From positions 1,634,101 to 1,698,100 of the forward strand of contig NC_092677.1 of NCBI RefSeq assembly GCF_964355755.1: 64,000 nt of DNA, read 5' to 3'. Origin of the DNA: Antedon mediterranea (Eukaryota; Animalia; Echinodermata). Position numbers and translations under genes: made by a program. The notes under the pieces were generated by a model that ran no database searches, had not been told where the DNA came from, and saw nothing but the letters and a program-made list of their open reading frames with translations. Positions 1-34,800 of this stretch are shown here, one piece after another (positions within the stretch are counted from its first letter, which is position 1; every line of letters starts with the position of its first letter).

Positions 1-3000
1 TGATGACCCACCAGTGGATGATGATACTGTGACATTAAATGTGATATGTACGTATACGGTTAAATTCAAATATTTGTATATAGATAGAGAGCTTGATTCT
101 TCTTCTGTTATTACGTTATTATATACTTCATTATATAGTCATTGGTATATTTTTTAATTGTTTATAATACAGTTTTAAAATATTTTTGGAATGGAAAAAC
201 ATTGTTTAGGCCTATCGCTAGACCGGTACCCAATATATTTCCTGTATTATTTCAGTGCAGAATGACTGTATAAATCACGCTTGTTCTAATGGAGGTTTTT
301 GTACCCAGTCTTCTAGTTCTATAGGATACACGTGTTCCTGTCCAATGTGTTTCTTTGGACAATTGTGTGAAACTCGTGAGTTTTTTTATTTTCTATTATT
401 GGAAAGTACTGTACATTACAAGCCAAATTATTCCTTTAAATCTTTTTAATTAAATAATTAAGAAAGTATATCAAATCTAGAAATGATCTTGGCGGGGTAG
501 GTTATCCGCACAAGCGCGGTTTACACGTTGTACGTTAGAATATTCGCCCACAAATTGATAATGCTGAAATAAATATTATCTTTTTGTTTGCATAATTTCT
601 ATTTTTGTGCCATATGATCCATATCCAGTACATATTTTATAACTACATACAGTGTAGCATAGAGGAAATTACCGGACCTACCTACATAGATGAAATTACC
701 AGTTTTGTCTGCAAAAGTCGGTCCGGGAGGCGATTTTTTTTTTCGTACATAAGTTGGGGACCCCCCTCATGAAACGTCACAAAATAAACATGAATAATTC
801 ATCAGTTAAATTTGTTGTTCCGTGTGCACCCAAGCGTATAGGAACAAGAAGCGATTACACAACTGCGATACGATACTTTCTAGGCCTAGGATTCTAAGTC
901 AATTCACGCGATTGCCTTCGCGCACTCTTCTTCACACAAAATGTGTCGAGTCGAGGCTAATCGACAGCTAGGCAAGACATTAAACTAAGTAGTAATTCAT
1001 TGGACATAGCCCAAAGAAAGCTTAGACCCACAAGAATAAAGAATGTGTATAATTTGTGTACTGTATTTTTTTTAATTCTGCTATTTTATTATCAAACAAT
1101 GCATGTACTCAAAGGAACTTTAAAAATGCGCGTATATGAACACATGAGATGGGAAGATTAGACCCACGAGAATAAAAAATGTATTTTTGTGTAATGTTTA
1201 TTGTTTAATTTTGCTGACTTATTACTCGGATTGTGTCATACCTATAACACACACACACACACGCTCTACTAGAATAGACATATGTTTAGAGACTAATAAT
1301 TAGGCCTAGGCCTAATAGTATTAATAGAAACTATAATTTTAACACGTAATTCTTTAGTAATAAATTATATTAAAAACACTATCATAAACTAAAGGCTGAT
1401 TATTTAGACAATCCACACAAAACGCCGCTATTCTTCTATGAAATCGCTCGCCGCAACAACAGCGCGGAGATAGGCCTAGAATCGTACCGCACTTGTGTAA
1501 TCACTTCTTGTTGCTATACGCTTGGGTGCACACGGAACAAGAACATTTAACTGATGAATTATTCATGTTTATTTTGTGACGTTTCATGAGGGGGTCCCCA
1601 ACTTATGTACGAAAAAAAAAATCGCGTCCGGGAGACCATTTAATGGCTTCAAAATCGGTCCGGCCGAACACATTTTTGCCGCAAAAAGCTGGTCCGGCCT
1701 GGATAAAATCGGTCCAGGCAGTAGGACATTTTGGCTACCAAAAGTGGTACCGTCTTAAAAATATATGGTGCTATAATGTATATATCATTCAAAAAAGGCC
1801 ATAGGCCAGAGATGTCAGGGTAATGTATACCAGGAGGAATTTTATAAAAAATGATATTAGTAAAAATGTTATTACATATTAATCGTCTAATAGTTGCAGA
1901 TACGTTTCAATTCCGTTCAATTTAATGTTGATGCTTTTAACCTCATCTTCCAGTAAGGAATAGTTAGTGTTAAACTGCTTCAGTTCAGTGTTGTGTGTGA
2001 CACAGTCATTTTGAAATGTGGCTGTTACCATGGTTACGGATGTCGTAAAAATGTGTTATCTAACATTTTGGTAACAACAGCAGCAACAGCAACAACAATA
2101 ACAACAACAATAACAATAACAATAATCTATATATAAATTTACGTAAGGGCAAAATTCGGTAAATCGCGCCTTACTTTTAGAATTTTTACTCGATGGTATA
2201 TAAAGTTGGTTCGTACTTTCGGTACTGGTTTTAACCACCTGATGTAACCCTGTTTACTAATTAAATTAAGTTAGATAATTAGTTATTGACGATTAAAACG
2301 AATTTAGGTTCAACGATTTGCCCCAAATAGGGGTGTTTTCCGATCGTGGTACACTGTCTAATGGATGTCAATCTTGAAAAATACCCGCCACAAAAATTTG
2401 AGGAGGCTTCGCATTTTCCTATCTCCTCCTACGATAATTGTTTTTAATAGCTGAAAACCGGTTGAACAGCTCGAGTACAGTATCATGATGTTGAAGACAG
2501 GCCGATTTTCTTAAAAAAATACTATTTTGATAGATTTAATATACGTTTATACAAATGTATTGATTTGCGATGAATGGAACATTCCAATCTCTGTGTCGTT
2601 CCACAAGTCTCTATTCCCTCAGGCGTCGTAAAGGAAAGTACTGTATACTCATAACAGAAATTCGATCCATTTTTTTTTCAATCTGTGCTGCAGAGGTTGG
2701 ATATAATTTTTTATAAACGGATAATGAGCTGGTGCTAGCGTTTTCAGTCGCCGTATGTTATGTACAAATCTTTATTATTGCAGTTAAACCACCCATATCA
2801 TCACCCTTCCCTCACTGGCATGAGTAGCGTTAAAAGCCATAGTAGAGCCTGATAGGCCTACGGTGCATCATATGCCCTAAACGCAAAACAACTTTGGTGG
2901 GTAGGGTAGGAACCAACTTAAGTATGAATTGGCTCTAAGAAACAATTGAAAACCATTACCACTACTAATTAAGTTGAGTTAGATAATTTAATATTTATTG

Positions 3001-6000
3001 ACGATTAAATCGAATTTATGATTTTCCCCCGAATAGAGGTGGTTTTCACAAATTGTTTTACATTATATAAACATACACGTCGTAGTTATGTATCGTTACA
3101 TGTACTGCTATTTCAATCTACTAGGACGGTGATACTGATAGTTTCAACAAAGTATTACATCGCAATGTTTTACTGTGTTTAGTGGTATATTATTTGTAAA
3201 ACATGAAAACAATTAATATTTTGTTACTAAATGTATAAAGAATATATTTAAAAATTGTTCCTCTTTGCACCCATCCTCTTCCCCATCCCTCAACCCTAAT
3301 GTTACATACAAAACACAAATTAAGTTTGTTTAAATTTGACTTAAACAATTGGTCTCATTTTGTGACAAGTTTCTCTTTCGGAAGTAATTCCCATGGTGCT
3401 AATTTTAGTTGAGTACATAAATCAGTGTCTGTTTATTCGTTTCTGTAAACGACATGTATTATTGTACGTACAGTTGAAATCGTCAGTTTTTTAACGCTGA
3501 AATTATTATGTATTCGAGAACCATCTGTGGGCACGACCTAGATGGTACGCGAGCGAAGCGAGCGTACCATCTAGTAATAACAATAATATTAATAATAAGT
3601 GGAAACAAAACTGCATTAGCGCCTAAATGAGTTACTCCAACAACCTTTGCCAGAATCAAGCTCGGCTTGTGACCATTCTCTTGTGGTTCTTGATCTTGTA
3701 AAATATTACAGCCTGTACATCATGCTATACTGGACAGTAAATGTCTTTGTACTGTGATTTGAAGGTGCTATTGTAAGTTTTTAATGTCTTTTATGAATGT
3801 TTTTAATCATTTGCTAAAAAATCAGGACCATTTATCCTGTCCAAATAATGTTATAAATAAATTAAATATGTTTTAAATAAATTAAATGAATAAATAAATG
3901 CATGGTAAGCTCTAATGTGTGTCTGCTTGTTTTTTTTCCATATCCCAGTTCAAATTACAGTGTATTAAAACATGCAATTTGAACATTCATTTATTATTAT
4001 CAGTACTGAATGCATGCTCCAACAATGCTTGTCAGAATGGAGGTGGTTGTGTCCAGGTTTCTGGTTCGTGCACAGCATACACGTGTACCTGTCCAGACTG
4101 TTATACTGGACAATTCTGTGAGACTCGTAAGTTCTATGTTTTCCTGTTTGTTTTTATTTACAATTCAAATACAAATTTGATTCATGTATTTTACAGTAAA
4201 AAGCATGTTTGTTACTCAAATAAATTTATTTATTATTATTATTATCAGTATTGAATGCATGCTCCAACCATGCTTGTCAGAATGGAGGTGGTTGTGTCCA
4301 GGTTTCTGGTTCCTGTACAGCATACACATGTGCCTGTCCATCATGTTTTACTGGAACATTCTGTGAAACTGGTAAGTTCTATGTTTTTTCTGCTTGTCTT
4401 TATCAGAATTCAAATATGTATTTTACAGTCTATAGTTTTCTGAAACTGTAATTTTTTCTTTTGTATAATATTCACTACCAGCGTCTGATGCTTGGGACGC
4501 AAGTTCTATGTTTGTCTGCTTGTCAGCCCGTGCCGACTGAATCTTCCCTATAATATTCCAGTATAAATGTAACTAGAATGCATTCATTTTTTATTATCAG
4601 GAAATGCTTGCACTGGCAACATTTGTCAGAATGGAGCTGCTTGTTTCCCGGTTTCAGGTTCGTGCACAGCATACACATGTACCTGTCCAGACTGTTATAC
4701 TGGACAATTCTGTGAGACTTGTAAGTTCTATGTTTTTCTGTTTGTTTTCAGTCGCGTGGAAGCGACTCTATAGTTCACTATGTCGGTCGGTTGGTCGGTC
4801 TGTCTGTCTGTCGGTCTGTCTGTCGGTCTGTCTGTCTGTCTGTTGGTCCGGTATCACTATGCGTTTTATCGCTTTCTGACCTTATCTTGATATCAGTTTA
4901 ATCTAGCTAAGTCAATTGTTCACAGAATATTCCTTATGGCCAGGAATCGATGTGGTTATGTTTTCACGGTGCGCAATAAAAAATTACGTGGTCTGCGCAC
5001 GATTTAACGAAATCACGTTTCTAATCATATCTTCACAACCATGAATCACAATTAAATAAAATTTGGTACTCATAAATTTCAGGGCATAAATCATCATATG
5101 GCAATACAATTACGTGCGTAGCGTATGTAACGCATGCGTACGCGCGCTTAAAATTTTCAAAATTTATTTTCGATGAAATAAGAGTACGTTTCAGGCAATT
5201 TTAAGCGTTTACAAAATTTCTATGAGTGCGCATATTTTTGCGTGCGCACTGCGCGTTAAATGTTATTGCGAACTCTTTTTGCCCGATTTCTGTTTTCTTG
5301 ACTTACTTTTCAACGCGAAATTACGTTATACGAGCACGTCAAAAGTGACAGGCTACGCACGTGTAAATTAAAAAAATATAAATGTTTTTAAACATTTCAA
5401 CATTTTTAAACATGTTCAGTAATTTCGGTCAGTATAGTTCACTATGTCGGTCGGTCGGTCTGTCTGTCGGTCTGTCGGTCTGTCTGTCGGTCCGGTATCA
5501 CTATGCATTGTAGCACGCGACTTAATGGCTGTTGGCCTTGTTATTTACAGTCGAAATACAAATTTAATTCATGTATTTTACAGTAAAAAGCATGTTTGTT
5601 ACTCAAATACATTTATTTATTATTATTATTATCAGTATTGAATGCTTGTGATAACAGTGCTTGTCAGAATGGAGCTGCTTGTGTCCAGGTTTCTGGTTCG
5701 TGCACAGCATACACGTGTACCTGTCCAGACTGTTATACTGGAACATTCTGTGAGACTTGTAAGTTCTATGTTTTTCTGTTTGCTTTATTTACAGTTCAAA
5801 TACAAATTTGATTCATGTATTTTACAGTATAAAGCATGTTTGTTACTCAAATACATTTATTTATTATTATTATTATCAGTATTGAATGCATGCTCCAACA
5901 ATGCTTGTCAGAATGGAGGTGGTTGTGTCCAGGTTTCTGGTTCGTGCACAGCATACACGTGTACCTGTCCAGACTGTTATACTGGACAATTCTGTGAGAC

Positions 6001-9000
6001 TCGTAAGTTCTATGTTTTCCTGTTTGTTTTTATTTACAATTCAAATACAAATTTGATTCATGTATTTTACAGTAAAAAGCATGTTTGTTACTCAAATAAA
6101 TTTATTTATTATTATTATTATCAGTATTGAATGCATGCTCCAACCATGCTTGTCAGAATGGAGGTGGTTGTGTCCAGGTTTCTGGTTCCTGTACAGCATA
6201 CACATGTGCCTGTCCATCATGTTTTACTGGAACATTCTGTGAAACTGGTAAGTTCTATGTTTTTTCTGCTTGTCTTTATCAGAATTCAAATATGTATTTT
6301 ACAGTCTATAGTTTTCTGAAACTGTAATTTTTTCTTTTGTATAATATTCACTACCAGCGTCTGATGCTTGGGACGCAAGTTCTATGTTTGTCTGCTTGTC
6401 AGCCCGTGCCGACTGAATCTTCCCTATAATATTCCAGTATAAATGTAACTAGAATGCATTCATTTTTTATTATCAGGAAATGCTTGCACTGGCAACATTT
6501 GTCAGAATGGAGCTGCTTGTTTCCCGGTTTCAGGTTCGTGCACAGCATACACATGTACCTGTCCAGACTGTTATACTGGACAATTCTGTGAGACTTGTAA
6601 GTTCTATGTTTTTCTGTTTGTTTTCAGTCGCGTGGAAGCGACTCTATAGTTCACTATGTCGGTCGGTTGGTCGGTCTGTCTGTCTGTCGGTCTGTCTGTC
6701 GGTCTGTCTGTCTGTCTGTTGGTCCGGTATCACTATGCGTTTTATCGCTTTCTGACCTTATCTTGATATCAGTTTAATCTAGCTAAGTCAATTGTTCACA
6801 GAATATTCCTTATGGCCAGGAATCGATGTGGTTATGTTTTCACGGTGCGCAATAAAAAATTACGTGGTCTGCGCACGATTTAACGAAATCACGTTTCTAA
6901 TCATATCTTCACAACCATGAATCACAATTAAATAAAATTTGGTACTCATAAATTTCAGGGCATAAATCATCATATGGCAATACAATTACGTGCGTAGCGT
7001 ATGTAACGCATGCGTACGCGCGCTTAAAATTTTCAAAATTTATTTTCGATGAAATAAGAGTACGTTTCAGGCAATTTTAAGCGTTTACAAAATTTCTATG
7101 AGTGCGCATATTTTTGCGTGCGCACTGCGCGTTAAATGTTATTGCGAACTCTTTTTGCCCGATTTCTGTTTTCTTGACTTACTTTTCAACGCGAAATTAC
7201 GTTATACGAGCACGTCAAAAGTGACAGGCTACGCACGTGTAAATTAAAAAAATATAAATGTTTTTAAACATTTCAACATTTTTAAACATGTTCAGTAATT
7301 TCGGTCAGTATAGTTCACTATGTCGGTCGGTCGGTCTGTCTGTCGGTCTGTCGGTCTGTCTGTCGGTCCGGTATCACTATGCATTGTAGCACGCGACTTA
7401 ATGGCTGTTGGCCTTGTTATTTACAGTCGAAATACAAATTTAATTCATGTATTTTACAGTAAAAAGCATGTTTGTTACTCAAATACATTTATTTATTATT
7501 ATTATTATCAGTATTGAATGCTTGTGATAACAGTGCTTGTCAGAATGGAGCTGCTTGTGTCCAGGTTTCTGGTTCGTGCACAGCATACACGTGTACCTGT
7601 CCAGACTGTTATACTGGAACATTCTGTGAGACTTGTAAGTTCTATGTTTTTCTGTTTGCTTTATTTACAGTTCAAATACAAATTTGATTCATGTATTTTA
7701 CAGTATAAAGCATGTTTGTTACTCAAATACATTTATTTATTATTATTATCAGTATTGAATGCATGCTCCAACAATGCTTGTCAGAATGGAGGTGGTTGTG
7801 TCCAGGTTTCTGGTTCCTGTACAGCATACACATGTACCTGTCCAGACTGTTATACTGGACAATTCTGTGAGACTTGTAAGTTCTATGTTTTCCTGTTTGT
7901 TTTTATTTACAGTTCAAATACAAATTTAATTCATGTATTTTACAGTAAAAAGCATGTTTGTTACTCAAATACATTTATTTATTATTATTATTATCAGTAT
8001 TGAATGCTTGTGATAACAGTGCTTGTCAGAATGGAGCTGCTTGTGTCCAGGTTTCTGGTTCCTGTACAGCATACACATGTGCCTGTCCATCATGTTTTAC
8101 TGGAACATTCTGTGAAACTGGTAAGTTCTATGTTTTTTCTGCTTGTCTTTATCAGAATTCAAATATGTATTTTACAGTCTATAGTTTTCTGAAACTGTAA
8201 TTTTTTCTTTTGTATAATAATCACTATCAGCGTCTGATGCTTGGGACGCAAGTTCAATATTTGTCTGCTTGTCAGCCCGTGCCGACTGAATCTTCCCTAT
8301 AATATTCCAGTATAAATGTAACTAGAATGCATTCATTTTTTATTATCAGGAAATGCTTGCACTGGCAACATTTGTCAGAATGGAGCTGCTTGTTTCCCGG
8401 TTTCAGGTTCGTGCACAGCATACACGTGTACCTGTCCAGACTGTTATACTGGACAATTCTGTGTGACTTGTAAGTTCTATGTTTTTCTGTTTGTTTTATT
8501 TACAGTTCAAATACAAATTTAATTCATGTATTTTACAGTATAAAGCATGTTTGTTACTCAAATACATTTATTTATTTATTATTGTCAGTATTGAATGCAT
8601 GCTCCAACAATGCTTGTCAGAATGGAGATGGTTGTGTCCAGGTTTCTGGTTCCTGTACATTATACACGTGTTCCTGTCCATCATGTTATACTGGACAATT
8701 CTGTGAGACTTGTAAGTTCTATGTTTTTTTGGTTTTTTTTTATTTACAGTTCAAATACAAATGTGATTCATGTATTATGAATCAAATTATGTATAATGCA
8801 TGTTTGTTACTCAAATATTTTTATTTATTATTATTATCAGTGTTAAATGCTTGTAACAACAATGCTTGTCAGAATGGAGCTGCTTGTATCCAGGTTTCTG
8901 GTTCCTGTACATTATACACGTGTTCCTGTCCATCATGTTATACTGGACAATTCTGTGAGACTTGTAAGTTTTATGGGTTTTTTTTTGGTTTTTTTTATTT

Positions 9001-10944
9001 ACAGTTCAAATACAAATGTGATTCATGTATTATGAATCAAATTATGTATAATGCATGTTTGTTACTCAAATACATTATTTATTATTATTATCAGCATTGA
9101 ATGCATGCTCCAACAACTCATGTCAGAATGGAGGTGCATGTGTCCAGGTTTCTGGTTCCTGTACAGCATACACGTGTACCTGTCCATCATGTTTTAGTGG
9201 AACATTATGTGAAACTGGTAAGTTCTGTGTGTGTCTCTTGTCTTTATCACAGTTCAAATACAAATTCATGTATTTTACAGAAAAAAAAGCATTTTAGTAA
9301 CTCGAATACTGTACATTCATTACTATTATCAGGATCAAATTCTTGCTCCAGTCATAGTTGTCTAAATGGAGGTTCATGTAAAACTGTTACGGGTTCCTGT
9401 TCAGAATACACATGTACCTGTTCATCATGTTTTAATGGAACGTTCTGTGGAAATGGTAAGCTTTGTGTCTGTTTGTCTTTTTTCTTTTCATAGTTTAAAT
9501 ACAAATTCAATTCTTATGTTTTACCGTATATTAATTAACTCGAATACATTCATTTTTAAAAACAGCGTCAAATGGTTGCTCCAACAACCTTTGTCAGAAT
9601 GGAGGTACATGTAACACTGTTGTTGGTTCCTGTACAGCATACACGTGTACCTGTCCATCATGTTATACTGGAACCTTCTGTCAAACATGTAAGTTCTATG
9701 TTTGTCTGCTTGTCACTACCAAATGTCAGGTATAATTGGTAAATATTACAGTCTATTATGCTTACGATTGACGCCATATTTACCTGTTTATCATGCATAT
9801 TGGACAATTACAGTTATTTATTTTTCAAAAACTACTTTATGTAATCTCAATATTTTCTTTCTATTTAATACCAGTGTTGAATGCTTGTTCCAGCCACGTT
9901 TGTCAGAATGACGCTACTTGCAACCAGCATTCCTGTACAGTATACACATGCACCTGTCCTACTTACTACATTGGAACGTTCTGTGAAACTTGTAAGTTCT
10001 TAGTTTGTCTTCTTCTGTCAAACAATTTTTTAATACGCAAATGCGTCTATGGTTTTAGATTAAGATTTGTTAATAGTGAAAATGATTAGGTAGGTGTACT
10101 ACAAACTATCTGTTGCGATATTCACCCTCTTCACTAAGTGGAAAAATCATATTTTAGTGTGATTTTCCGTTTTGTATTAATTTCTGTTGTATAATATGGA
10201 ATATTTATTTGAAATGAAAAGTTAACGACATTTTTTTAAACATAAACACAGATTTAGGTTTGACTTCAGAGACTTCAGATGACTCAACGAGTCTTGCTGT
10301 CATATTCGTGTTTGTTGGAACAGTCATTGGCATTATTTTCACACTTTTAATATTTTGTTTGATCAGAAAAATGATAATGCCAAGTCCACAACAGGTAAGA
10401 TGCATTAAAAAATAAAATAAGTTATCCTAGGTCGTATTGAGATGAATGCATTTGGATATCATATTTAAACTCAATACAGTACTGTATTATTGTGTCATTA
10501 AATCAACGAATCGCAAATGCTACACTATAAACTAATAATATTTAATTGGGTTTTTTTTTCATGTTTTTTAAGGTAACGGAATCGGAAAATGACAATCAAA
10601 CAGGGGTAATTAAATAACTATTTGAATATTACTTTTCAGCAACATCACCTTCATAATACATCATTTCTAATTCTTAACTAAATAATTTTAAATCATAATG
10701 ACAACCAAAATTGACACACCATTGTAAACAAACCCAGTTTCTACCGACATTTATTTGAACAATTAGAAACTTTAAGCTTTTAACATGTTGCTAATTACAA
10801 TATAATTTCTAAATTGCTTTTTAGATACCTTCTTCTATTGATGAAATAAATCCGGACAGCAATCGTGTTTACGATGAGATACAAACAACCGATATAAGGA
10901 ACACAGTTGTATATGCGAATCAGATGTTCGAAACAGAAACTTAA
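1..10944 (+). CDS. 5'-partial type I membrane protein: Ig-domain end, 18 tandem EGF-like modules, TM, short Tyr-containing tail
   Basis: Exons: 1-47 (DDPPVDDDTVTLNVI, Ig G-strand-like). EGF exons, all phase 1-1: 256-375, 4004-4126, 4249-4371, 4601-4720, 5636-5758, 5880-6002, 6125-6247, 6477-6596, 7512-7634, 7753-7875, 7998-8120, 8350-8469, 8589-8711, 8841-8963, 9095-9217, 9333-9455, 9566-9688, 9875-9991. TM exon 10252-10394 (LAVIFVFVGTVIGIIFTLLIFCLIRK); 10573-10605; last exon 10825-10944 (IPSSIDEINPDSNRVYDEIQTTDIRNTVVYANQMFETET*). All junctions are AG/GT and in frame. Confidence 0.88.
720..1640. mobile_element. Non-autonomous DNA transposon / foldback-like element with long inverted repeats
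   Basis: About 165 bp at 725-888 (gcgattttttttttcgtacataagttggggacccc...taggccta) is the reverse complement of 1471-1635. Flanked by ggacc..ggtcc short repeats. Confidence 0.7.
2075..2125. repeat. (CAA/CAG)n microsatellite
   Basis: caacagcagcaacagcaacaacaataacaacaac... Confidence 0.8.
3538..3575 (+). mobile_element. Hairpin ending in CTAG/T, Helitron-like 3' terminus
   Basis: ctagatggtacgc-gagcgaagcga-gcgtaccatctag then t: a perfect 13-bp stem ending in CTAG followed by T. Confidence 0.45.
4748..5542 (+). mobile_element. Helentron-associated non-autonomous element (HINE / DINE-1-like), copy 1
   Basis: Subterminal inverted repeats agtcgcgtg...cacgcgact, GTCG/GTCT microsatellite, and a 3' small stem-loop ggctgttggcc then ttgtt. 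Inserted in a T run with no TSD; the empty site is visible at 8485-8505. Confidence 0.72.
6624..7418 (+). mobile_element. HINE / DINE-1-like element, copy 2 (from the tandem duplication)
   Basis: Same sequence as 4748-5542, offset by 1876. Confidence 0.72.
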
Positions 10945-18277: not shown

Positions 18278-21200
18278 TCATATCATAACACCAACAGATT
18301 TGCCACCATCTTGCTTAAACTTGGCATCTTCTCTGGCATCAAACAACATTTCCTGTTAAAAAAAACATTTAGAATGTTAGTAAAGGTATTATTTAACCTA
18401 TAATAGATAACACATTTATTGGAACTACGCCTTCACATTGGTGGCATAAAAAGCATACAAAACCTATTCATTAAAAATGCACAGCAAATAAAGCTGGAAA
18501 GTCATACTACTATTACAAACTTTAAAAGATGAATTGTAAAATGATGGAGAAAAATATAAGTAAAAATGATATTGAATATAAATATGTTAACTTACATTAC
18601 TTTTCTGAAGATCTTTACTAATACCCAAACCTGATTTCTCATCACCGGTTTTCAAAGGTTGACGGGTTGCCTTACCACTCACCTCCACATCAGCAGGATG
18701 GCCAGTATAAGCAAGACTGTAAGATATATACATATCAAACTGAATTATACGATTCTTTTTGATTTTCTTATGTGTTTCTTTTTCTAAACTGCAATGGTTA
18801 TCAAATTTATTATATTATGTGAGGGCGTGTGGCGCAGTGGATTTCTGATCATGAGGTCGTGGTTCGGATCCAACTCTCGCTGCATTGCTTGTATCCTTAG
18901 GCAAGACACTTTACTTACAATTGCATCTCTCTACCCAGATGTATAAAATACCGGGTAGAAAAAGGCACAACTTTGCGCTGATTACTAGCTGCATTATTAT
19001 GGGAGTATGTTTCCATACATGGTTGACCCAAACATGACCTGGGTATTAACGTGCAGTGCATTGAAAGCTTGCTTATATGGGCTATATAAGAATCAACTAT
19101 TATTATTATTATAACCAGATAGTAAAAAGATAAATAAAACACAATTAGGCATTTTATACTTACTTTCCTGGTACCTTTTCCTTTCCTGTAATTTAAAAAA
19201 TGAAATAGCCAAAGTTAACAACCACAATACTGTGGTCTGTAGCATTGATGTGTAGAAGTGTTTTTAACATAGCTTTATGGAAAGTACTGAGGAGTTCAAC
19301 TCAAATAGGCTTCATCATACCTTACTTTTACTAATTTACCAATAACAATTAAAAGTGTTCAAAATTAAAGAGGGTTTTTAAGGAAGGAAAGCATACGATT
19401 GGCGTTTAACAATATTTAGTAAATTGGTTCCCAATTTTATAATTGAATGCACAGGCATGTGTTGTGTGTGATGCACAGGCATGTGTTGTGTGTGATGCAC
19501 AGGCATGTGTTGTGTGTGATGCACAGGCATGTGTTGTGTGTGATGCACAGGCATGTGTTGTGTGTGATGCACAGGCATGTGTTGTGTGTGATGCACAGGC
19601 ATGTGTTGTGTGTGATGCACAGGCATGTGTTGTGTGTGATGCACAGGCATGTGTTGTGTGTGATGCACAGGCATGTGTTGTGTGTGATGCACAGGCATAT
19701 GTTGTGTGTGATGCACAGGCATGTGTTGTGTGTGATGCACAGGCATGTGTTGTGTGTGATGCACAGGCATGTGTTGTGTGTGATGCACAGGCATGTGTTG
19801 TGTGTGATGCACAGGCATGTGTTGTGTGTGATGCACAGGCATGTGTTGTGTGTGATGCACAGGCATGTGTTGTGTGTGATGCACAGGCATGTGTTGTGTG
19901 TGATGCACAGGCATGTGTTGTGTGTGATGCACAGGCATGTGTTGTGTGTGATGCACAGGCATGTGTTGTGTGTGATGCACAGGCATGTGTTGTGTGTGAT
20001 GCACAGGCATATGTTGTGTGTGATGCACAGGCATGTGTTGTGTGTGATGCACAGGCATGTGTTGTGTGTGATGCACAGGCATGTGTTGTGTGTGATGCAC
20101 AGGCATGTGTTGTGTGTGATGCACAGGCATGTGTTGTGTGTGATGCACAGGCATGTGTTGTGTGTGATGCACAGGCATGTGTTGTGTGTGATGCACAGGC
20201 ATGTGTTGTGTGTGATGCACAGGCATGTGTTGTGTGTGATGCACAGGCATGTGTTGTGTGTGATGCACAGGCATGTGTTGTGTGTGATGCACAGGCATGT
20301 GTTGTGTGTGATGCACAGGCATATGTTGTGTGTGATGCACAGGCATGTGTTGTGTGTGATGCACAGGCATGTGTTGTGTGTGATGCACAGGCATGTGTTG
20401 TGTGTGATGCACAGGCATGTGTTGTGTGTGATGCACAGGCATGTGTTGTGTGTGATGCACAGGCATGTGTTGTGTGTGATGCACAGGCATGTGTTGTGTG
20501 TGATGCACAGGCATGTGTTGTGTGTGTGTTACCCTCCGTGTTTTATAGTGTGTAGTATAGCTTTCAATATGTATATATATTTATGTTGCTTTTCTTTTGT
20601 TTCCTTTCATTATTTTGCTCAATTGTTACATTGTTTTGTTTTGGATGCACCACTAACAACAGTGTGTGTCACTGATAGAAAAGTGATGACCAATAAATAA
20701 ATACCAATAAAATGATACTGGTACCAATAAACGTTGTACTTTATTCATTGATCCAAGCATTTATATTCCTCTGCATCTAATTACTGGCTATAAAACATAT
20801 TAATTAACTTACTTTTCCTGCAGTACAGCACAGCTACAACAATTACAACAATAACTACAATGACAGCAATGATCACTCCTGCAATCAGACCACCATTCGA
20901 TCCTTTTTCTAAATTAAAAAAAAGATCATAATTCATGTTTGTATTGTATTCTATCAATAAAGACGTTGTAATTAAAAGATAATGATCTAATAAATTATGT
21001 ATTTACAGCAGATGCTGTAATGGTATTACAAAATTAAAAGACTGAAACAGTTCTTGGGAAGAAAAACAGAAAATATAACGGAAATGTCTTTTGAGTGCTA
21101 CAATGGCTACACTAAGTCCCATGTATAAAGATAACCATGCAGAGAGTAAAGTTCTGTCTACATTATCAAATCTTATGTGACAAAAAAGTGTGATGTGCCC

Positions 21201-24200
21201 AAATATAGTAATATGTGCCCAAATATAGTAATATATGCCCAAATATGGTGAGGTTGAAATCATCATGTCCATATATGGGCACATCACATTTTTATGTCAC
21301 ATAAAGTTTGATAGTGTAGAAAGAGCTGTATAATAATAATAATAAAATATATAACATTGAAATATTTTTGTTGTTGCTTGATTGTCATCTTAAAAAAGAA
21401 CAACTTTCTCCACTTCTTATACCAGTGCTTCCTTTAATGTTAGTCCTATTTAAGTCTGCTGACCTGAGAATGACCTACCATGTGCATTTCCTCACCTTTA
21501 CACTCTTTTCAATTATATTTTATTACTCTAGTTGAATTTAAATTTGCAACACAACAACTGGCAAGTTGATCCAAGCAAAATGCTATCAATTTAAAATATC
21601 TATTTTATTTTTAAACCTTTCAAAATGTCCTGAAATGATCATATAAAAAGAAAAAGGTTTTTCACCAATAGGTTCCTATAGGATCCTATTGCCAAATAGC
21701 CTATAGGGCCATTTTTCTTAAGCTCTGTCTACACTATAAAACTAATTTGACAACAAAAGTGTGATGTGCCCAAATATGGTAGTATATACCAAAATATGGT
21801 AGAGGTATGACATCATCATGTCCATATAATTATGGGCATATCACATTTTTTTGTCACCATATTGCTAAAATGGCTCTAAATCGATTATCATTATTCACAT
21901 TTGATTATGGGTGTCAATGCATCTATTATTATTATATCAATATTTATTTATTATTACATCAATTTTTATAAAGCGTCAATTCAAAGACCGAGGTACAAAA
22001 TCAAAGGCGCTGGGCATGTTAGTGGTCGAAAAAAAATGAGTTTTGAGCAATTTTTTAAATAAGAGCAGTGTTTAATTTGTGGGGGGAGTGAATTCCAGAG
22101 TGTGGGTGCAGCAAAAGAAAACGATCTATGACCAAAGGTTTTAGTGGCTATGCGTGGAACAGAGAGTAAAAAATCATCAGATGATCTAAGATTCCGTCCA
22201 GGAGCATAAAGGGTGATTAATTGACGGATGTAAGCAGGTTGGTTGAAAAGAAGTGCTTTAAAAGTAAGGAGCAAGATTTTAAATTTGATTCGATTGTCAA
22301 TGGGGAGCCAGTGAAGTTCTCGAAGAACAGGTGAAATGAATGATAGAGGATGTGGAGCGTATCGAAAGAAAACGTTGAATGTGTGCAATATTGCGAAGAT
22401 AAAAGTTTACTGATTTAGTAATATAACTGATGTGTGCTTGCATGTTTAGAGATTCGTCAAGTTTTATACCAAGATTAGTAACTAATTGAGACGGATGTAT
22501 GAGTGATGAGCCAATAGTAATAAAATGGGGTGCTATTTTGGTACGAATATGATTAGTACAGAAAATGATGTATTCAGATTTATTATCATTTAATTTGAGG
22601 AGCCAGGTATGGATGTCTTTAAGGCAATTCTCAAGGCGTTCAATAACAATAAGTAGATTATGTGGATCAAAAGGAATATACAACTGAATATCATCAGCGT
22701 AGAAATGATAAGAGATGTTGTGACGTTTGATAATTTGGGATAAAGGAGATATATCTAGTCTACATACCTTGTTTACATGTAACACCTTCAAAGCCTGAGG
22801 TACATTCACAACTAAAACCATTATCATTAATCTCACAAGTCCCTTGATTATTACAAGGACTTGAAGAACATGCATCTTGAAATAAAAACAAACATGCATA
22901 GCAATATTAACATTAAGTCATAACATTGCAAGGTTATTAAGGGCTTAAAAGTGCTTATTAACACCGTGGACCTAATTTATAGGTCCGTGTTAACACATAA
23001 CATGCAAAGCCTGGGTAAAGCAACAAAGAGAAGTTACTACATTGGAACAGGTATACTGTATCAAGAGTGTAAAATAATACTACTGAGCATTTATAGTACA
23101 ACAGTCTAGTTGAACAAGTGAAGAAGAGACTTAATTTGCATTAAGGGCAGAAACTTTGTTGAATTTTGACAAATATTAAATGTACCCAGAGATAAGAGAT
23201 TTTAATTAAAGTTAGGAGTATTTTATACTGTGAAAACAAAATATCAAACAGCACAGAATTGTCAACTCACACCATGTGCTGGGACAAGTTATTTGGTCTT
23301 TACTTATACTATTCATAGGTAGCATTTAAGACAATGACAAATTCTACTTTTTGGAGAGATAACTGTACAGGTACAATAACAATAACTAAATATTTTGTCT
23401 TCACAATATGACATGATTAGATTAACATAGAGGTCAACTTACCATCACAAGATTCAAAGGTTTCTGTAACAGAAGGATTGACGTTATTGTCTATAACACA
23501 TGTTACGACTGATGTTGTATCGCATGAAACGTCAGCAGACACGGAACCAGTACCGGATTCAAGATCAGATTGATCGAGTTGAATGGTGACTCTTGGTGTG
23601 GGATTCCCCTCTGCCTCACATGTTACTTTTCCTCCAATCCATTCCATAGTTGTTAATGATACATCTGTAATACAATATAACAAATCTGGTAAAAATCAAA
23701 TTCATACCAAAGCACATATTCAAGCAAAATAACCATGTACACCACAAATGTTATTCTTTTCAGATTTTATCTAAAAAAATGAAACAAATTTCTTACAATT
23801 TACTGTTAAATCTAGAAAGAGACTGCTGTATCTTCCTTCACTACCAGAATATGCAGAATTCTCGGCTCGACAGCGATAAGATCCTTCATCAGTGGACATG
23901 ACATTACTAATGGTCAAGTTCTGGTTGTATAAAGAACCACTAAATCTTTCACTGTTATCAATATCAATTATATTATCAAATTTAAACCAGGAAAAAGTGA
24001 TTTCAGTTGGTATTCCATCTGGCAAGGTACATTCAAGTGTGGCTGTACTGTCACTTAGTACGGACATAGAGGACTCTTTCACTGATGGAGGATCAAGATC
24101 TGATGAAGAACAAATATATAGCAAATTGTTAATTGGTCAGATGTTTGCATCTAGTAAGTAATTGTCTCCAAGACATCTGACACACTTACTTACAAGAGTG

Positions 24201-25390
24201 GATTAATATATAGGAGATATTCTCCAAATTCCTTTGTGTGTTTTAGAGGTTTAGTGCTCATTCTGATTTTTACAAATTGAATACAGACACTAATTTGAAA
24301 TGAATTACAAATCTGCAAACTAACATTTCCTAACAAAGGTGAGGGTGAGGTTAAGTGTCTACCTCAATTAACATTAGTGCTCACATACAAACAGCAAATA
24401 CTATATGCCTTAAAATGCAGTCTGTAATTTTAATATTAATTTATTAATAAACATTCCTCTTAATTATTATTTATAACTTAAGGATTAATTCAGTGGACAG
24501 ATCTTCTGAAGCACTAACAGATTGTATGTATGGGCGAGTTCATCTACATGAGATTTGTTTGGGCAACCTAGGCACAATGTAGACTGTATATATCTCGTAT
24601 ATGTCATTCAATTTTAATACATACATTGAACGGTAAGATTGGTAACCTTGTTCCTTATAATACCGCCAGCAAACACCACGTTACACTCATAGTACCCTGC
24701 ATCAGCCTTGACAACATCTGAAATCCTAAGATCACCTCTATTTGTACCACTTATTAGAGAATAACGGCTATTTGGTGATGAAGTAGTATCAGAACTAACA
24801 AGTGGATTTCCTTCTTTTTCCCCTTGTTCGTCGGTACGGTACCAACTGATTAAGGTCAGGGCTGGGGGTGGATTTGTGTAGCCGCATTCTATCGTAGCTG
24901 TTTCGCTTTCTTTGACAACAGCTGGTGTAACAGTTACTACTTGCATTAAAACATCTAGAAAAAAGTCAGGGAGTCACTTACAGTACAGACCAAAAATACA
25001 TGTTATTCTGATGGTTGCTAATGATCAGCTTTGGCTGGATGGGCCACCCTCATGAAATAAATAAAGTACAATTACTTAATATGTTTAATAATAATAATAG
25101 TAGTAATAATAGTAATAATGGTAAGTAATAATAGTTCAGGCGGCTAACCTATCCCCATATTGACATTTTTTAACTTTTAATTGTTTTTCTAACTGAAAGA
25201 TAATATTTTAAACCATTAAGTGAATGTGATAATACAGAAATAGAAAATACTGTACAAACACAATTAGGATGAGACAATTTGGTATAATGTGTAGCGGCAA
25301 TCAATAACAGAGTGAGTGAACACTTTAATACTTACTTGATGGAAACACCAAAACAAGCAACAATTTAATAAGACTTTTCATATTCTTCAT
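18278..25390 (-). CDS. Type I Ig-superfamily membrane protein: signal peptide, IgV, IgC2, short Ig, EGF, TM, cytoplasmic tail ending GVMI
   Basis: Exons: 25336-25390 ([18 protein letters not shown]), 24625-24954 (IgV; C..WYRTD..DAGYYEC), 23797-24099 (IgC2; DEGSYRC), 23443-23664 ([13 protein letters not shown]), 22768-22875 (6-Cys [29 protein letters not shown]), 20813-20908 ([26 protein letters not shown]), 19164-19185, 18596-18716, 18278-18352. Phases are consistent. Confidence 0.87.
18820..19112 (+). mobile_element. tRNA-derived SINE with CORE-like domain
   Basis: A-box-like gtggcgcagtgg, B-box-like ggttcggatcc, CORE-like tgtatccttaggcaagacacttt, and a (tat)n tail. Confidence 0.6.
19447..20527. 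repeat. 24-bp intronic minisatellite (gatgcacaggcatgtgttgtgtgt), ~45 copies
   Basis: Perfect tandem array. The long ORFs on both strands are translations of the repeat. Confidence 0.97.
21145..21328. mobile_element. MITE, same family as 13564-13720; another partial copy at 21720-21856
   Basis: gttctgtctacattatcaaa...tttgatagtgtagaaagagct termini. Confidence 0.6.
21950..22755 (-). mobile_element. 5'-truncated L2-clade LINE (end of reverse transcriptase ORF2), frameshifted
   Basis: [12 protein letters not shown] motif, [34 protein letters not shown]. Confidence 0.9.
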
Positions 25391-28895: not shown

Positions 28896-31800
28896 TCATT
28901 TAGTTGTCAGTGATTCTTTCAAAAAATCTAGTGAGAACACATGGTGTCTGATGCAGAGACCCCGATCTTGGTCATCTTCTTCAAAATTTGTTGTGTAAAT
29001 CATCAAAAACCATGATTTTCCATCATTCAGAAAAGGAACAATTTGTTCACATTTAACTTTACTTCTGTTTTGTAAAATGTCAATCGAGTTGAAATTGTCT
29101 CCACTTCTGACATGTATCGGCTTTAAACGGACAACATTATTGTCTGTTGTGTCTTGTAGAAAATGCCACAGACCTTCAAATTCGATCGCCTTCTTTTTCG
29201 CTTCTTCTTTTTTAGTTTTTCCCTTTTTATTAGATTTTTCCTGATTTGAAGATAGTTCTTCCTCAATAGCTTTACTTTCTTTTTTAGTTTTCTCTTTTGA
29301 TTTTCCCTTTATCAATTGTTTCGCAAAACCATGTCTCTTCTTTTCTTCTTCTCTAGTTTTTACATTTTTATCTAATTTTACTCCTTCTTGGTTTAAAGGG
29401 ACTTCCTCCTCTATTGATTCATTCTCTTTTTTAGTTTTCTCTTTTGATTTTCCCCTTTTGAATATCTTCTTAAAACCCCGTTTCTTTTCTTTTTCTTCTT
29501 CATCTTTTTCATGTACACATGGTGTTGACTCATCAGGTTCTTGTTGACTTATTCCTTGTATGTCTTCTTCATCTTCTTTGTTTACTTCTATTTCTTCTTT
29601 TACTACTGCTGCTACTGCTTCTTCTTTAGGAGTTTGATCGTTAGATTCGTCAATTGCGGGGACGCCCTTATAATCTGCTGACTGTTTTGTCTTGTTTTTA
29701 ATCGACGATAATGCTTTTGAAACTATACCAACTAAACCTGATTTCTTTGTTGTCTTGTCGGTTGGTTTTTCTTCCTCTGTTTCATTTGAACCCGCTTTTG
29801 TCACGTCATCGTCTGGATTAGCATCTTCCATTCCTTCCAAGTTCTGATTTAAACCTGCAAATGCACCTTGTTTTCTTTCGGTATCCAATGGTTCCTCATC
29901 TAGTTGTGTTACTTCTGTTTCTTCCCTTTCTTCTACTACTGCTGCTGCTTTATCTTCTTTCGGAGTTTCATTAGATCCTTCAGTTGTAGGCACGCTTTCA
30001 TAGTCTGAATCAGATGATTGTTTTGTCTTTCTTTTATTCGACAATAGGCCTAATGCTTTTGAAACTTTACCTTTTGCATTTCCAAATACACCGCGTTTCT
30101 TTGTTGTCTCGTCGGTTGTTTGTTCTTCTCTCACCTCCTTTGTACCTGTTGTTGGCACATCATTGTTTGGATTATCATCTTCCATTCCTTCCAAGTTTTG
30201 ATTTTCACTCTGCGATCCTTGATTTGTGACTGGCGCAAATAGCTTTTCGACGGAGTTTTTTAAACCTGCAAGCACACCTTGTTTTCTTTCGGTATCCAGT
30301 GGTTCTTCTGTTGCAGATTCTGTTGTCACTTTGTGGTTAGCATCTTCATCAGTTTTATTTATAGTTGGAGCACAAACAAACATTCCATCTGAAGAAAGCG
30401 TAACACTAAATACGGGCATACAAATAGTAGATATCTGAAAAAAAATACGAATGTATCGGTGAAGAAAGAATTTTGCGATAAAGAGATATCAATAATAATA
30501 AGCCTTCTTCTAAATAAAACAACATACCTGCTCTGCCTCTTTAAACGTTGTACAATTATCTTCACTGACCCCTTCGTATAGAAGCATACTGGACTGCGAC
30601 AATGAAATAAGCACACGCACTTTACTAATGTTTGTTTCGATTAACTGGAAGACAAGATTCGTTTAATGACAATGTGAAAAATGTCTAGTTCAATAATCTA
30701 GTGAAAAATGGTACTTATTAATAATAATTGTATAAAATAATATATTTGTAATGAATTAGTTCATTTGTTAATGATGGTCGTTATTGAAACGTAGGAGGGA
30801 ACTGGTATTTTTCATCAAAAAACTCTAATTGTCAGGGTCTATACTGGTTTTTGTAAATGTTACATTTCGATATTAGAACTAAAACCAAACCTGAATTCGC
30901 ATATTATCTTCAGCGTTGTTCATTTCCACATAAACTATATTCCAATCATTTTCATTATCTGTCCACATTATAAAAGGCTTGTAAACTACACAGAAATAGA
31001 TCAATGTGTTGTTAGACTTAATCACAGAATTTCGTCAGATTTATAATAGAGAACGACATGTTTGAAAAAAAAGAACACATTCACATTTTTATTTAAAAAA
31101 ATAGACCTAGTATAGGTTTAAAAAACATGTGTTCGCTCTGGCAGGAATTATTCACACTTGACTGTAAGACATGCTCTTCATAAAATGACCACTACTTAAT
31201 TTACAGTAAAGTATTAGCTAAGTCCTAAATTCATCTTTATTACACCAGCATTGTTTCACTATTTAGCTGGTAGCAGTCAATTCCACTCATAACAAACACC
31301 TTTCTCTCACACCTTTAGTGCTCTATATTTAAATTATATTGTATGTAGACCTATAATTGTGTGATTCTTACTGAAAGGCTGATCTTCGATATCCGTTTGC
31401 TTTTGGCTAGACAAAGGTAGATACTTGACCCTCAATTCGTGTATTCGACTACTAGACTTCTCCTCTGTTTTAACTGTAAAAATCAAACAAACCTCATAAA
31501 TAAACTAGATATAGGGTAGATACTATACTTTATTTCGGCATTAATTATGACCGAACAATACATTTGTGTGCACATTTGATAATAATATAATAACTCATCA
31601 TTCATGTATTTGTTTATAAGGAGGTAAGATACGTATTGAAAGTTTGTTTGGCGTTTGAATGAACCGTAACAATACTTTCTTTTTAGTCGCGTGGACACGA
31701 CTCTATAGTTCACTATGTCGGTCGGTCGGTCGGTCGGTCTGTCGGTCTGTCTGTCGGTCCGGTATCACTATGCGTTTTAGCATGCGACTTATGGCTGTTG

Positions 31801-34800
31801 GCCTTGTTGAACTTTCATTTCATTTTATTTCATTTTACTAATAACTTAAATAAAGTGAAGGAGCCCCCAATGTAAGTATAGCGTGTAGTGAATAGGCTTC
31901 TCAACTTAAACTCTACTAAACTAAAACGTATTTCAACTAATTTGTATTTTTTAATGTTACATTTTACAGACACTCTACCAAATAAAAATACTCGGACGAA
32001 AAAATTAAGTTTACCTTTACGTTTGACCCAACCACCAACAACAAGCCGTCCATTTGACAATCTTTTTCCGCTTAGATAATCTAGAAAGAACAATAATTAA
32101 CATATTTATAATTTTATTATTTATATCAATCTTTTAAAATGTATTTTTATCTCTATTTTCTTAACAAATAAAATTGAATGAATGATAGTGAGTTATTGTA
32201 TTTGATATGGTATTGTTTTCCAAAAATATCATGATACATAGCATAAATGGTTTAAAATTGCGTCCAACGTACCGAATTTTAAATCTACAACAGAACCATT
32301 TAACTCCAATGTTTTGATGACGTCATTCATTATTCTGAAGGCGGGATTTCTGTTACCAAAAACTGTAATCAACTTCCTTTTAATTCTTGACTTCGATTTA
32401 GATACATTAACAACCCCGATAACAATATAAGGAGAATTTATACCAGGTAACACGGCGTAACTCAATAACTGTCTAAAAACAAAGAAACATCTTGTCATTA
32501 ACATTTTTTACAGAAATGTTTCATACGTTTTCTTGTTTCCATACGTCCATGTCAACAAAATTTGGTAAGCCTCAACCTCACAACAACACATTTAGCTGCC
32601 AAAATAATTAATGATTATCGTAAATAATCTTACTCTGTTTGAAGTAAAATATTAGCTTTTGCTTTCCATTCAACGGTTGATGCTTGCGTCGTGCCAGGCA
32701 TTCCTTTACACATTATGTACTTATGCTTGTCATTCAGTAGTAAAAAGAACTGGTCATTATAAAGAAATACTCCACCAGCGCTATAAAATAAAAATCAGTA
32801 GACATCACTAAAAGTAAAATAAATGAAATCTTGTAAACTCACAATTTATATATTATTTTATTGCTATATCTACTAACATAAGGCAAACAACGCTTACCTA
32901 AAAATATTCTCTTTTGTATTTCTATGAATTACATCTGAAACGAATAATGACAAAATCAAAACATTTTTTTGGAAGATTATTCCGGATTTATTATTATTAT
33001 ATATTATTCCTGGGGCTTTTTGATTATTTATTGATTTTTATAGATTAAGGAACAATATCAATTATACATTACATATTTATTTATCTATTTATTTATTTTT
33101 CTCTGTTCTGGGTTGACCAACTAGCATGGGTGTGTAGCACCTGTTTGGTCTTTCTGTGCCTCCTTTTATAATTGTTTTGTCTTCTTATGTTTATGGCAGA
33201 AATTGAATAAAATAAAAATAAAATCAAATAAATACTGAATAACTGAAATGAAACATCGTATCGGTCATTATAAACGGAGCATGGTTACTATGAGGTATGT
33301 TACTGTTGAATCATAAATGGGTAAACAATTTTATTTTTTAAAAATACACATTTGTGAAAAAAGATTAGGAATTAAAACACACCGTGCGACTCCGTGACAT
33401 AAAGTAGGGCCTGCTTACCTTTTCTTAAATCTGCTTCTTGATCTTGAAGCTGTCGAATTAGATGAACTTGATTGGTTGTTGTTATGCTCATGATCTAAAA
33501 ACATAATTTTTTTCCCATTATTGTGAGAATCAATACTGACATTTGTGCTAGGCACAATTAAAAATTCCTTTTTTGAAAATGTCAAACCAATCGACGCACT
33601 GTGTTCTTACGTGTTAATTATATGTAGAAAAAAATAAAATATGAAAATACTTACATAACACATAATGCGACGGTTTTCAAGATTTTCATTATAGCTGATA
33701 CATATAGCATACCGGTGCCGGTACCGGTATGCTATAATGAGAATCACGGTTATGATGATAACTAAAATAACGACAGTTGCTGCAATTGCCCCTTTATTAC
33801 TAGATCTACTGCTTACTGGAGTCAATGTTGCCTCATCTGTAAAAACGATGTGTTACGCATTAATACATTTTTGCTGTTCTTAAAGTTTTTAAACTAGAAT
33901 TCATTTGTTGATTTGGGATTATATAATTTAAACAGTACAAATGGTGTTGTAATACATTTTTGTTGTTCTTAAACTTTTATAACTAGAATTCATTTGTTGA
34001 TTTGGGATTATATAATTTAAACAGTACAAATGGTGTTGTAATATAGACAGAGCAGCACTGCAAAACAAACTACTATACACCACCATCCTACCATCATTTT
34101 TGTTATCATCACGAGTCACTCTATTACTACCGCAATGTTCAATGAGTTTATTGAATTTTAGACTTGTATTGGTATAGATTATAGTACACTTTAGTAATTT
34201 TAAGCAATATTTGGAATTTAGCATGTAAACATTCATTCGTTTCTAATATTAAACCTCGCTAATCCAGAGAGAGATCTTTATTTTAGTATGTTATATTATA
34301 TGCAGAAGACACTAAAAATAACAACTAAATTACTTCTTGCGTGCGAGTTTTGTCTTATCTATATATTTAAGCTTCTTACAAGAAGATTATGATTGGTTTT
34401 GTTTGATTAGGGTCCCAGACTCCACTTGACTTATGACTTTATCAATTCTCTTAATCCACATGAAAGTAAATTGTACAATTCCTTTTCAAAACTCTGGAAA
34501 CGTACAACTTACCTTTGAGCTTCAATGTAATCGAGTTACTTGTTTTTCCATTTTGACCAAATAAGAATTCGTTTTCCACTTTGCAGCTGTACTGCCCTTC
34601 ATTCTTTTCCTCGAAACTTTCAATTTCTAGTGTAGGCCTATCCGTTTTAAATGTCAACATATTATTGTCATGGAACCATGTTCTTGTGATTGGTTTGGGA
34701 TAAGCTTCTGTCGAGTTGCAAGACATTGTAACGTTGCTTCCTCTTCCAACTTTAGAATCACCTAGTACTGACAGCGTTGGCTTATCCAAATCTGTCATTA

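Follow-up and report, generated by a model that had tools for sequence, protein, structure and literature searches.

To what do the surplus cysteines of an epidermal growth factor (EGF) array bond, when nearly every module carries two more than the canonical six? The question is raised by a 64,000-nucleotide stretch of the genome of the crinoid Antedon mediterranea (contig NC_092677.1, positions 1,634,101 to 1,698,100 of the forward strand; hereafter the window). An exon survey of its first 10 kb found exactly 18 EGF exons on the + strand between positions 256 and 9991, all bounded by AG and GT and all in phase 1-1. Spliced together they encode 732 residues, and each of the 18 holds the canonical six cysteines in the spacing of the EGF-like domain (PF00008). 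Pfam EGF was the top match in 4 of 4 exons scanned, with exon 1 at 23 bits against a curated cutoff of 21.5 and the other three below that cutoff (17.2, 14.2 and 19.4 bits). Few extracellular spacers are commoner than EGF arrays, and the established way of stiffening these combines calcium binding with aromatic packing; odd cysteines in EGF repeats are chiefly familiar as disease alleles in NOTCH3 or as links in teneurin dimers. An earlier note on this DNA had proposed that one extra cysteine of each module bonds to the other extra cysteine of the following module. We find it highly probable that such a bond joins successive modules of the same chain, locking their usual packing without calcium.

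Two positions are concerned. The loop cysteine lies between the fifth and sixth canonical cysteines, at C5+3, and the hairpin cysteine inside the C3-C4 hairpin, usually at C4-5. As the earlier note had read them, the cysteine counts along the array run 7, then 16 times 8, then 7, the first module having only the loop extra and the last only the hairpin extra. In exon 256-375, the loop cysteine stands in CPMC (codon 348-350) and the hairpin, TQSSSSIGYT, has a serine (TCT, 318-320) at the cysteine position; in exon 9875-9991, the hairpin cysteine is at 9934-9936 and a tyrosine (TAC, 9964-9966) occupies the loop position. The motifs given for the internal modules, VSGSC in the hairpin and CPDC or CPSC in the loop, describe the array in general but not exon 16, with VTGSC and CSSC, or exon 17, with VVGSC. 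A loop cysteine in one module is complemented by a hairpin cysteine in the next at 17 of 17 junctions, and the placement of the hairpin-less and loop-less modules first and last, in that order, has p = 1/306 if they are placed at random among 18.

Joint gain and loss of the two cysteines across the junctions of homologous proteins supports this pairing; the bond itself, its intrachain character, the stiffening and the role as a spacer are what we infer. Homologues were collected by three word-index searches (4 of 4, the best 120 of 1,453 and the best 150 of 1,081 matches) and a full HMMER search (the best 120 of 3,401 matches), which with cluster members gave 342 proteins. The scoring unit was a pair of adjacent parsed EGF modules with a linker of up to 10 residues, and junctions with non-EGF neighbours were left out. 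Among 3,730 unique pairs, 113 had both the loop cysteine of the first module and the hairpin cysteine of the second, 1 had the loop cysteine only, 7 the hairpin cysteine only and 3,609 neither; a stricter parser, with 246 proteins and 2,480 pairs, gave 107, 1, 5 and 2,367, respectively. The reverse direction fits badly (both in 70, single in 45 and 26), and coupling within modules is poor (both in 104, loop only in 32 and hairpin only in 35 of 4,683 unique modules). When module order was shuffled in 58 runs (164 pairs, 35 proteins), the 3 discordant pairs observed compared with a shuffled mean of 47.2 and a minimum of 28, and 0 of 10,000 shuffles were as low as 3. The dominant offsets in the homologues were those of the window, with 134 cysteines at C5+3 and 124 at C4-5. 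The counts include hairpin-only pairs from P0045, P0060 and P0163, Notch-like modules whose cysteine occupies another site in the hairpin; in these proteins the seventh cysteine lies in an 8-residue hairpin and the preceding module has no partner. Outside the parser counts, P0237 and P0160 have a cysteine at C5+3 followed by a module whose extra cysteine is differently placed, which may be a staple variant or a staple that arose independently.

The geometry of EGF arrays is consistent with such a bond. Packing of the C5-C6 loop of one module on the hairpin of the next, which the earlier note had assumed, agrees with the published Notch EGF description (PMC4826273), in which an aromatic residue at C5+4 packs on the following domain's major beta turn. 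F, Y or W occupies this position, directly after the loop cysteine, in 119 of 130 loop-cysteine modules. We obtained AlphaFold2 models of two homologues, and not of the window protein: a P0050 cassette (20-sequence alignment; predicted local distance difference test (pLDDT) 91.7, predicted template modelling score (pTM) 0.52) and residues 4-209 of P0001 (12 sequences; pLDDT 91.2, pTM 0.53). Both have the EGF fold of a major hairpin and a minor sheet, with the loop cysteine in the C-terminal minor sheet and the hairpin cysteine, in most modules, in the loop that links the two major strands; in module 3 of P0050 it stands where a strand begins. Single modules of these models superpose on solved EGFs at a root-mean-square deviation (rmsd) of 1-2, and three modules superpose on Drosophila Notch EGF11-13 (7alj) with Z 9.2 and rmsd 2.6 over 114 residues, and Z 10.0 and rmsd 3.8 over 114 residues. 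The calcium consensus, coded as D/N and E/Q/D before C1 and D/N at C3+2, was found in 0 of 107 acceptor modules of stapled homologue pairs, that is, pairs with both cysteines, versus 976 of 2,373 other pairs. In the window modules, the residue before C1 is Ala, Gly, Ser or Asp.

Could the extra cysteines be bonded otherwise? If the two in each module formed a fourth intradomain disulfide, one free cysteine would remain at each end of the array. Variants with 8 cysteines and four internal bonds do exist, as an integrin review describes for I-EGF (PMC12383024), and 104 unique modules carry both extras. However, 67 unique modules carry just one of the two, loop-only modules are followed by a hairpin-cysteine module in 23 of 25 cases (the other 2 lack a parsed neighbour), and in the models the positions lie in the major hairpin loop and the C-terminal minor sheet. 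These are opposite ends of the EGF fold, and we consider pairing within a module hardly credible. The covariation itself gives the same signal for bonds within one chain and for a register-shifted arrangement in which loop cysteine n of chain A pairs with hairpin cysteine n+1 of chain B, zipping two chains into a covalent dimer or fibre. Teneurins, which dimerise through free EGF cysteines (PMC9058538), offer a precedent, and stapled modules also occur in hyalin-type matrix proteins. Nevertheless, the head-to-tail EGF packing described for Notch already brings both positions to one intrachain interface (PMC4826273), and both single-chain models show that packing. The host proteins are also very different, comprising adhesion G-protein-coupled receptors (GPCRs), single-pass proteins with or without FN3, Kunitz-EGF proteins and hyalin, as fits a self-contained module; pairing between chains therefore seems improbable. 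A two-copy complex prediction for three P0050 modules scored 0.03 and was used neither way.

The oxidation state of the pair is a separate matter, as the cysteines at the interface might bind metal or form a labile, redox-switched bond instead of a stable one. Labile interdomain bonds have been described in integrin legs (PMC12383024), and some homologues tolerate unmatched cysteines. Coupling, for its part, indicates proximity or co-dependence rather than oxidation. Yet this part of the protein is predicted to be extracellular, where cysteine pairs are normally oxidised, and the homologue alignment shows no obvious conserved residue that would serve as a third or fourth metal ligand, so we rate an unstable pair as very improbable. 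A stable bond between loop cysteine and next hairpin cysteine in one chain remains the reading we prefer.

Is the array complete at both ends? In one contig of run X5, position 47 is spliced to 256 over a GT..AG intron, and the contig departs from the window at 0 positions in 1-47 and at 2 in 256-302; X5 is another sample and paralogous copies exist, such that the spliced contig may derive from an allele or a paralogue. The upstream piece (bases 2-46, 15 codons) reads as non-EGF. Because of this splice onto a non-EGF exon, 256-375 is taken as the true first EGF module, and the joint answers the concern that the window cuts off further EGF exons upstream. The 5' part of the gene, with any HYR repeats, lies beyond the window; its 15 readable codons look in sequence like the last strand of an immunoglobulin (Ig)-type domain. 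Contigs over 256-384 show exon 1 in several versions, paralogous or allelic; some of these depart right after C6 into sequence that is not EGF, which suggests that the family has members with just one EGF.

At the 3' end, the helix predicted downstream of the array has a Kyte-Doolittle mean of 2.98 over 21 residues, and a cysteine at its end, before a basic cluster, is a possible palmitoylation site. The predicted gene ends after this one helix, with the stop at 10944, and so does not have the GAIN/GPS region and seven helices of an adhesion GPCR; in tblastn searches of the window with P0001 and P0002, no match was found past base 10100 at E 0.01. The tyrosine-motif tail, together with neighbouring Ig genes, suggests a receptor for recognition or adhesion that is carried on a long stalk. 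The earlier claim that neither end of the array leaves a free cysteine holds in part: it stands with the acceptor at 10252, but a possible acceptor six bases on, at 10258, would make the junction codon an unpaired, membrane-proximal cysteine right after module 18, and several homologues have an unmatched end cysteine.

Coordinates of the EGF array, the flanking exons of its gene and the internal duplication (positions in the window)
Feature	Position	Strand	Basis
3' end of upstream non-EGF exon, phase-1 donor at 48	1..47	+	translation; splice 47->256
EGF module 1, 7 Cys, loop Cys only, N-terminal cap	256..375	+	exon survey; Pfam EGF 23 bits
EGF module 2, 8 Cys	4004..4126	+	exon survey
EGF module 3, 8 Cys	4249..4371	+	exon survey
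EGF module 4, 8 Cys	4601..4720	+	exon survey
EGF module 5, 8 Cys	5636..5758	+	exon survey
EGF module 6, 8 Cys	5880..6002	+	exon survey
EGF module 7, 8 Cys, DNA identical to module 3	6125..6247	+	exon survey and DNA comparison
EGF module 8, 8 Cys, DNA identical to module 4	6477..6596	+	exon survey and DNA comparison
EGF module 9, 8 Cys, DNA identical to module 5	7512..7634	+	exon survey and DNA comparison
EGF module 10, 8 Cys	7753..7875	+	exon survey
EGF module 11, 8 Cys	7998..8120	+	exon survey
EGF module 12, 8 Cys	8350..8469	+	exon survey
EGF module 13, 8 Cys	8589..8711	+	exon survey
EGF module 14, 8 Cys	8841..8963	+	exon survey
EGF module 15, 8 Cys	9095..9217	+	exon survey
EGF module 16, 8 Cys, VTGSC and CSSC	9333..9455	+	exon survey
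EGF module 17, 8 Cys, VVGSC	9566..9688	+	exon survey
EGF module 18, 7 Cys, hairpin Cys only, Tyr at loop position, C-terminal cap	9875..9991	+	exon survey
Near-perfect tandem duplication, four-exon block of 1,876 bases	4004..7755	+	1871/1876 identical
Predicted exon: Ser/Thr/Asp juxtamembrane stretch and one transmembrane helix	10252..10394	+	splice sites predicted from sequence
Predicted cytoplasmic micro-exon, phase 0-0	10573..10605	+	inferred
Predicted last coding exon, with the tyrosine motifs YDEI and YAN in the tail and the stop at 10944	10825..10944	+	inferred

In such a protein, 17 staples along 18 modules would yield a stiff, calcium-independent spacer. An EGF module is about 3 nm long, so 18 of them would span about 50 nm, and the stalk would hold the N-terminal part, possibly of Ig type, at roughly that distance from the membrane. 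Since the internal exons are in phase 1-1 and each contributes one donor and one acceptor cysteine, they could be duplicated or lost without leaving a free thiol, and array length would change in this manner between fixed 7-cysteine caps.

The 7-8...8-7 end pattern that the earlier note had expected of homologues recurs in arrays of 3-8 modules. We checked 18 non-redundant arrays capped at both ends, with 3, 4, 5, 6 or 8 modules, 15 of which have exactly 8N-2 cysteines; these arrays were chosen for being capped, and their range of lengths alone is informative. Arrays with 7-cysteine modules at both ends were found in all five echinoderm classes and in acorn worms, sea urchin hyalin included, and the form seen most often in homologues, 7-8-8-8-8-7, is the cassette of hyalin and hyalin-like HYR proteins. 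The closest relatives of the window modules (83-88% identity) are three crinoid proteins and one further record (4 of 4 matches). Counting isoforms, 45 proteins contain a stapled pair, and among the matches listed 44 of the 45 carry echinoderm or hemichordate names: the crinoids Anneissia and Antedon, the sea urchins Lytechinus and Diadema, the sea cucumbers Holothuria and Apostichopus, the brittle star Amphiura, the sea stars Asterias and Patiria, and the acorn worms Saccoglossus, Ptychodera and Glandiceps. No stapled pair was present in the other 297 proteins, top matches of the searches that include Notch, Crumbs, SNED1 and EYS. The HMMER search, made with a profile of the cassette, yielded no new stapled protein in the best 120 of 3,401 matches, mostly long plain EGF arrays; an ESM Atlas search returned generic EGF clusters only; and PDB sequence and fold searches returned Notch-type and other EGF chains, with the two extra cysteines in none of the alignments listed. 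Judged by sequence, the stapled array is not peculiar to the window gene but forms an old family with members in both echinoderms and hemichordates, a point that the earlier note missed.

How the caps arose can be partly traced. With both cysteine positions masked, window module 18 groups with internal 8-cysteine modules of crinoids and not with the end modules of hyalin (FastTree support 0.845), which suggests that it lost its loop cysteine on becoming the last module; the tree, built on modules of about 35 residues, is weak, and the placement of window module 1 (support 0.70) is unreliable. The long-hairpin first modules of P0152, P0183 and P0200 have Tyr, Thr or Leu at the hairpin-cysteine position. 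In Anneissia P0338, Phe replaces the hairpin cysteine and, in the segment before it, Ser occupies the loop position, while its cluster mate P0246 keeps the hairpin cysteine. Caps appear to have arisen by repeated separate losses, which we count in favour of the staple.

Several observations weigh against the staple or against parts of our account of it. The modules share ancestry, and for this reason the coupling counts overstate the number of independent events. Gly is the usual residue at C5+3 (2,439 of 3,149 other modules), so the turn in stapled modules must differ from that of Notch. Long-range straightness is not established, because pTM is 0.52-0.53 and longer superpositions are poor (rmsd 7.7-8.3 on Notch1 EGF20-24). 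The contig alignment rows listed include no EGF-EGF splice joint. Parsed runs, isoforms included, were capped at both ends in 29 of 47 cases and open at one or both ends in 18, although by eye most open ends are truncated gene models or parser misses. Among the 18 capped arrays checked, 3 carry one further odd cysteine. Individual proteins also seem to break the rule: P0211, P0181 and P0224 have a hairpin cysteine at the array start, directly after an HYR-type domain; P0152 has a lone loop-cysteine module ahead of a non-EGF domain; a basic cluster precedes the lone hairpin-cysteine module of P0039 and that of P0134; the last module of P0040 has a loop cysteine, with one non-EGF cysteine seven residues on; and in P0001, the closest relative, a 9-cysteine last module is followed by a plain 6-cysteine EGF. 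These exceptions, automatic gene models throughout, sit at junctions with non-EGF neighbours, which the pair counts leave out.

The number of modules in the window must be read with equal care. The four-exon block occupies 4004-5879 and, as a second copy, 5880-7755. Exons and introns together, the two agree at 1871 of 1876 positions, and a third copy, which is partial, agrees at 719 of 741; the 18 EGF exons comprise 15 distinct DNA sequences. Four internal modules either were duplicated very recently or are an artefact of the assembly, and given the near-identity of the two copies the true module count could be 14. The aligned contigs do not span 4004-7755. The introns 376-4003, 4721-5635 and 6597-7511, the latter two of 915 bases, contain high-copy repeats, as judged by very high summed contig depth.

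Elsewhere in the window, a neighbouring gene on the - strand (22763-24973) has V-set and I-set Ig exons and an ordinary 6-cysteine EGF exon, the sole other EGF-type exon found. Directly after this EGF exon, also on the - strand, 21984-22917 contains fragments that resemble a reverse-transcriptase remnant of the long interspersed element type. Two similar pairs of IgV and IgI exons (34454-35629 and 44927-46085, - strand), each with a long charged low-complexity frame downstream (28899-30488 and 38408-39457), look in sequence like a tandemly duplicated Ig receptor gene, and a further V-set exon lies at 52502-52942. A near-perfect 24-base tandem repeat (19443-20552) and a 15-base tandem repeat (61029-61513) are each open in several frames.

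A repeating, directional disulfide between modules would be a different solution to the stiffening of EGF arrays. In open-access full text we found no description of a repeating inter-module EGF staple, and no paper noting the cysteine pattern of the hyalin cassette; subscription papers, among them the original hyalin papers, were not covered. On balance we lean towards an undescribed second design for a rigid EGF rod, in which a disulfide chain replaces calcium, and which would predate the echinoderm-hemichordate split and have been shuffled, as a capped cassette of tunable length, into hyalin, adhesion GPCRs and single-pass receptors. The staple would explain how exon arrays grow or shrink without leaving free thiols, and from it follows a clear prediction about the structure of sea urchin hyalin and of crinoid adhesion GPCR stalks. 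If true, it would offer a design for calcium-free protein rulers and, if the staples are reducible, for a rod that can be switched from stiff to floppy.

How does the array compare with known systems? With the rods of Notch EGF11-13 and fibrillin it shares the six canonical cysteines, the aromatic residue at C5+4, head-to-tail packing in the models and a six-residue linker (83 of 107 stapled pairs), but its hairpin usually has 11 residues rather than 8, two extra cysteines flank the interface and the calcium consensus is absent. In Notch1, rigidity is linked to Ca2+, and pairs whose last module is a non-Ca2+ EGF were bent or flexible (PMC4826273). Integrin beta I-EGF modules are likewise an 8-cysteine variant with an inter-EGF bond. 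Their disulfides (1-5, 2-4, 3-6 and 7-8) are mostly intradomain, with an EGF1-EGF2 interdomain bond and a PSI-EGF1 bond also described (PMC12383024). The integrin inter-EGF bond links a domain's last cysteine with the first cysteine of its successor, once, at a flexible hinge, whereas the stapled array would form a repeating chain. Nor do our modules follow the I-EGF or laminin-type 8-cysteine pattern, as one extra sits in the C3-C4 hairpin and the other in the C5-C6 loop, and the two are not coupled inside a module. Teneurin EGF2 and EGF5 resemble the array in having non-canonical cysteines that bond outside their own module (PMC9058538), but in teneurin the bonds connect separate chains, and do so in two of the eight repeats, whereas here a pair is present at every junction and the six canonical cysteines are kept. 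Hyalin and hyalin-like HYR proteins (XP_041472953.1, Lytechinus variegatus) contain the same module, as the 7-8-8-8-8-7 cassette, but are giant HYR-repeat proteins, whereas the window gene closes with a single predicted transmembrane helix followed by a short tail. Closest of all are the crinoid adhesion GPCR G7-like proteins P0001 (Anneissia japonica) and P0002 (Antedon mediterranea), whose modules are 83-85% identical to window module 6; P0002 also has a divergent hairpin-cysteine-only cap at its array end, and both differ from the window gene in having 7TM (seven-transmembrane) domains.

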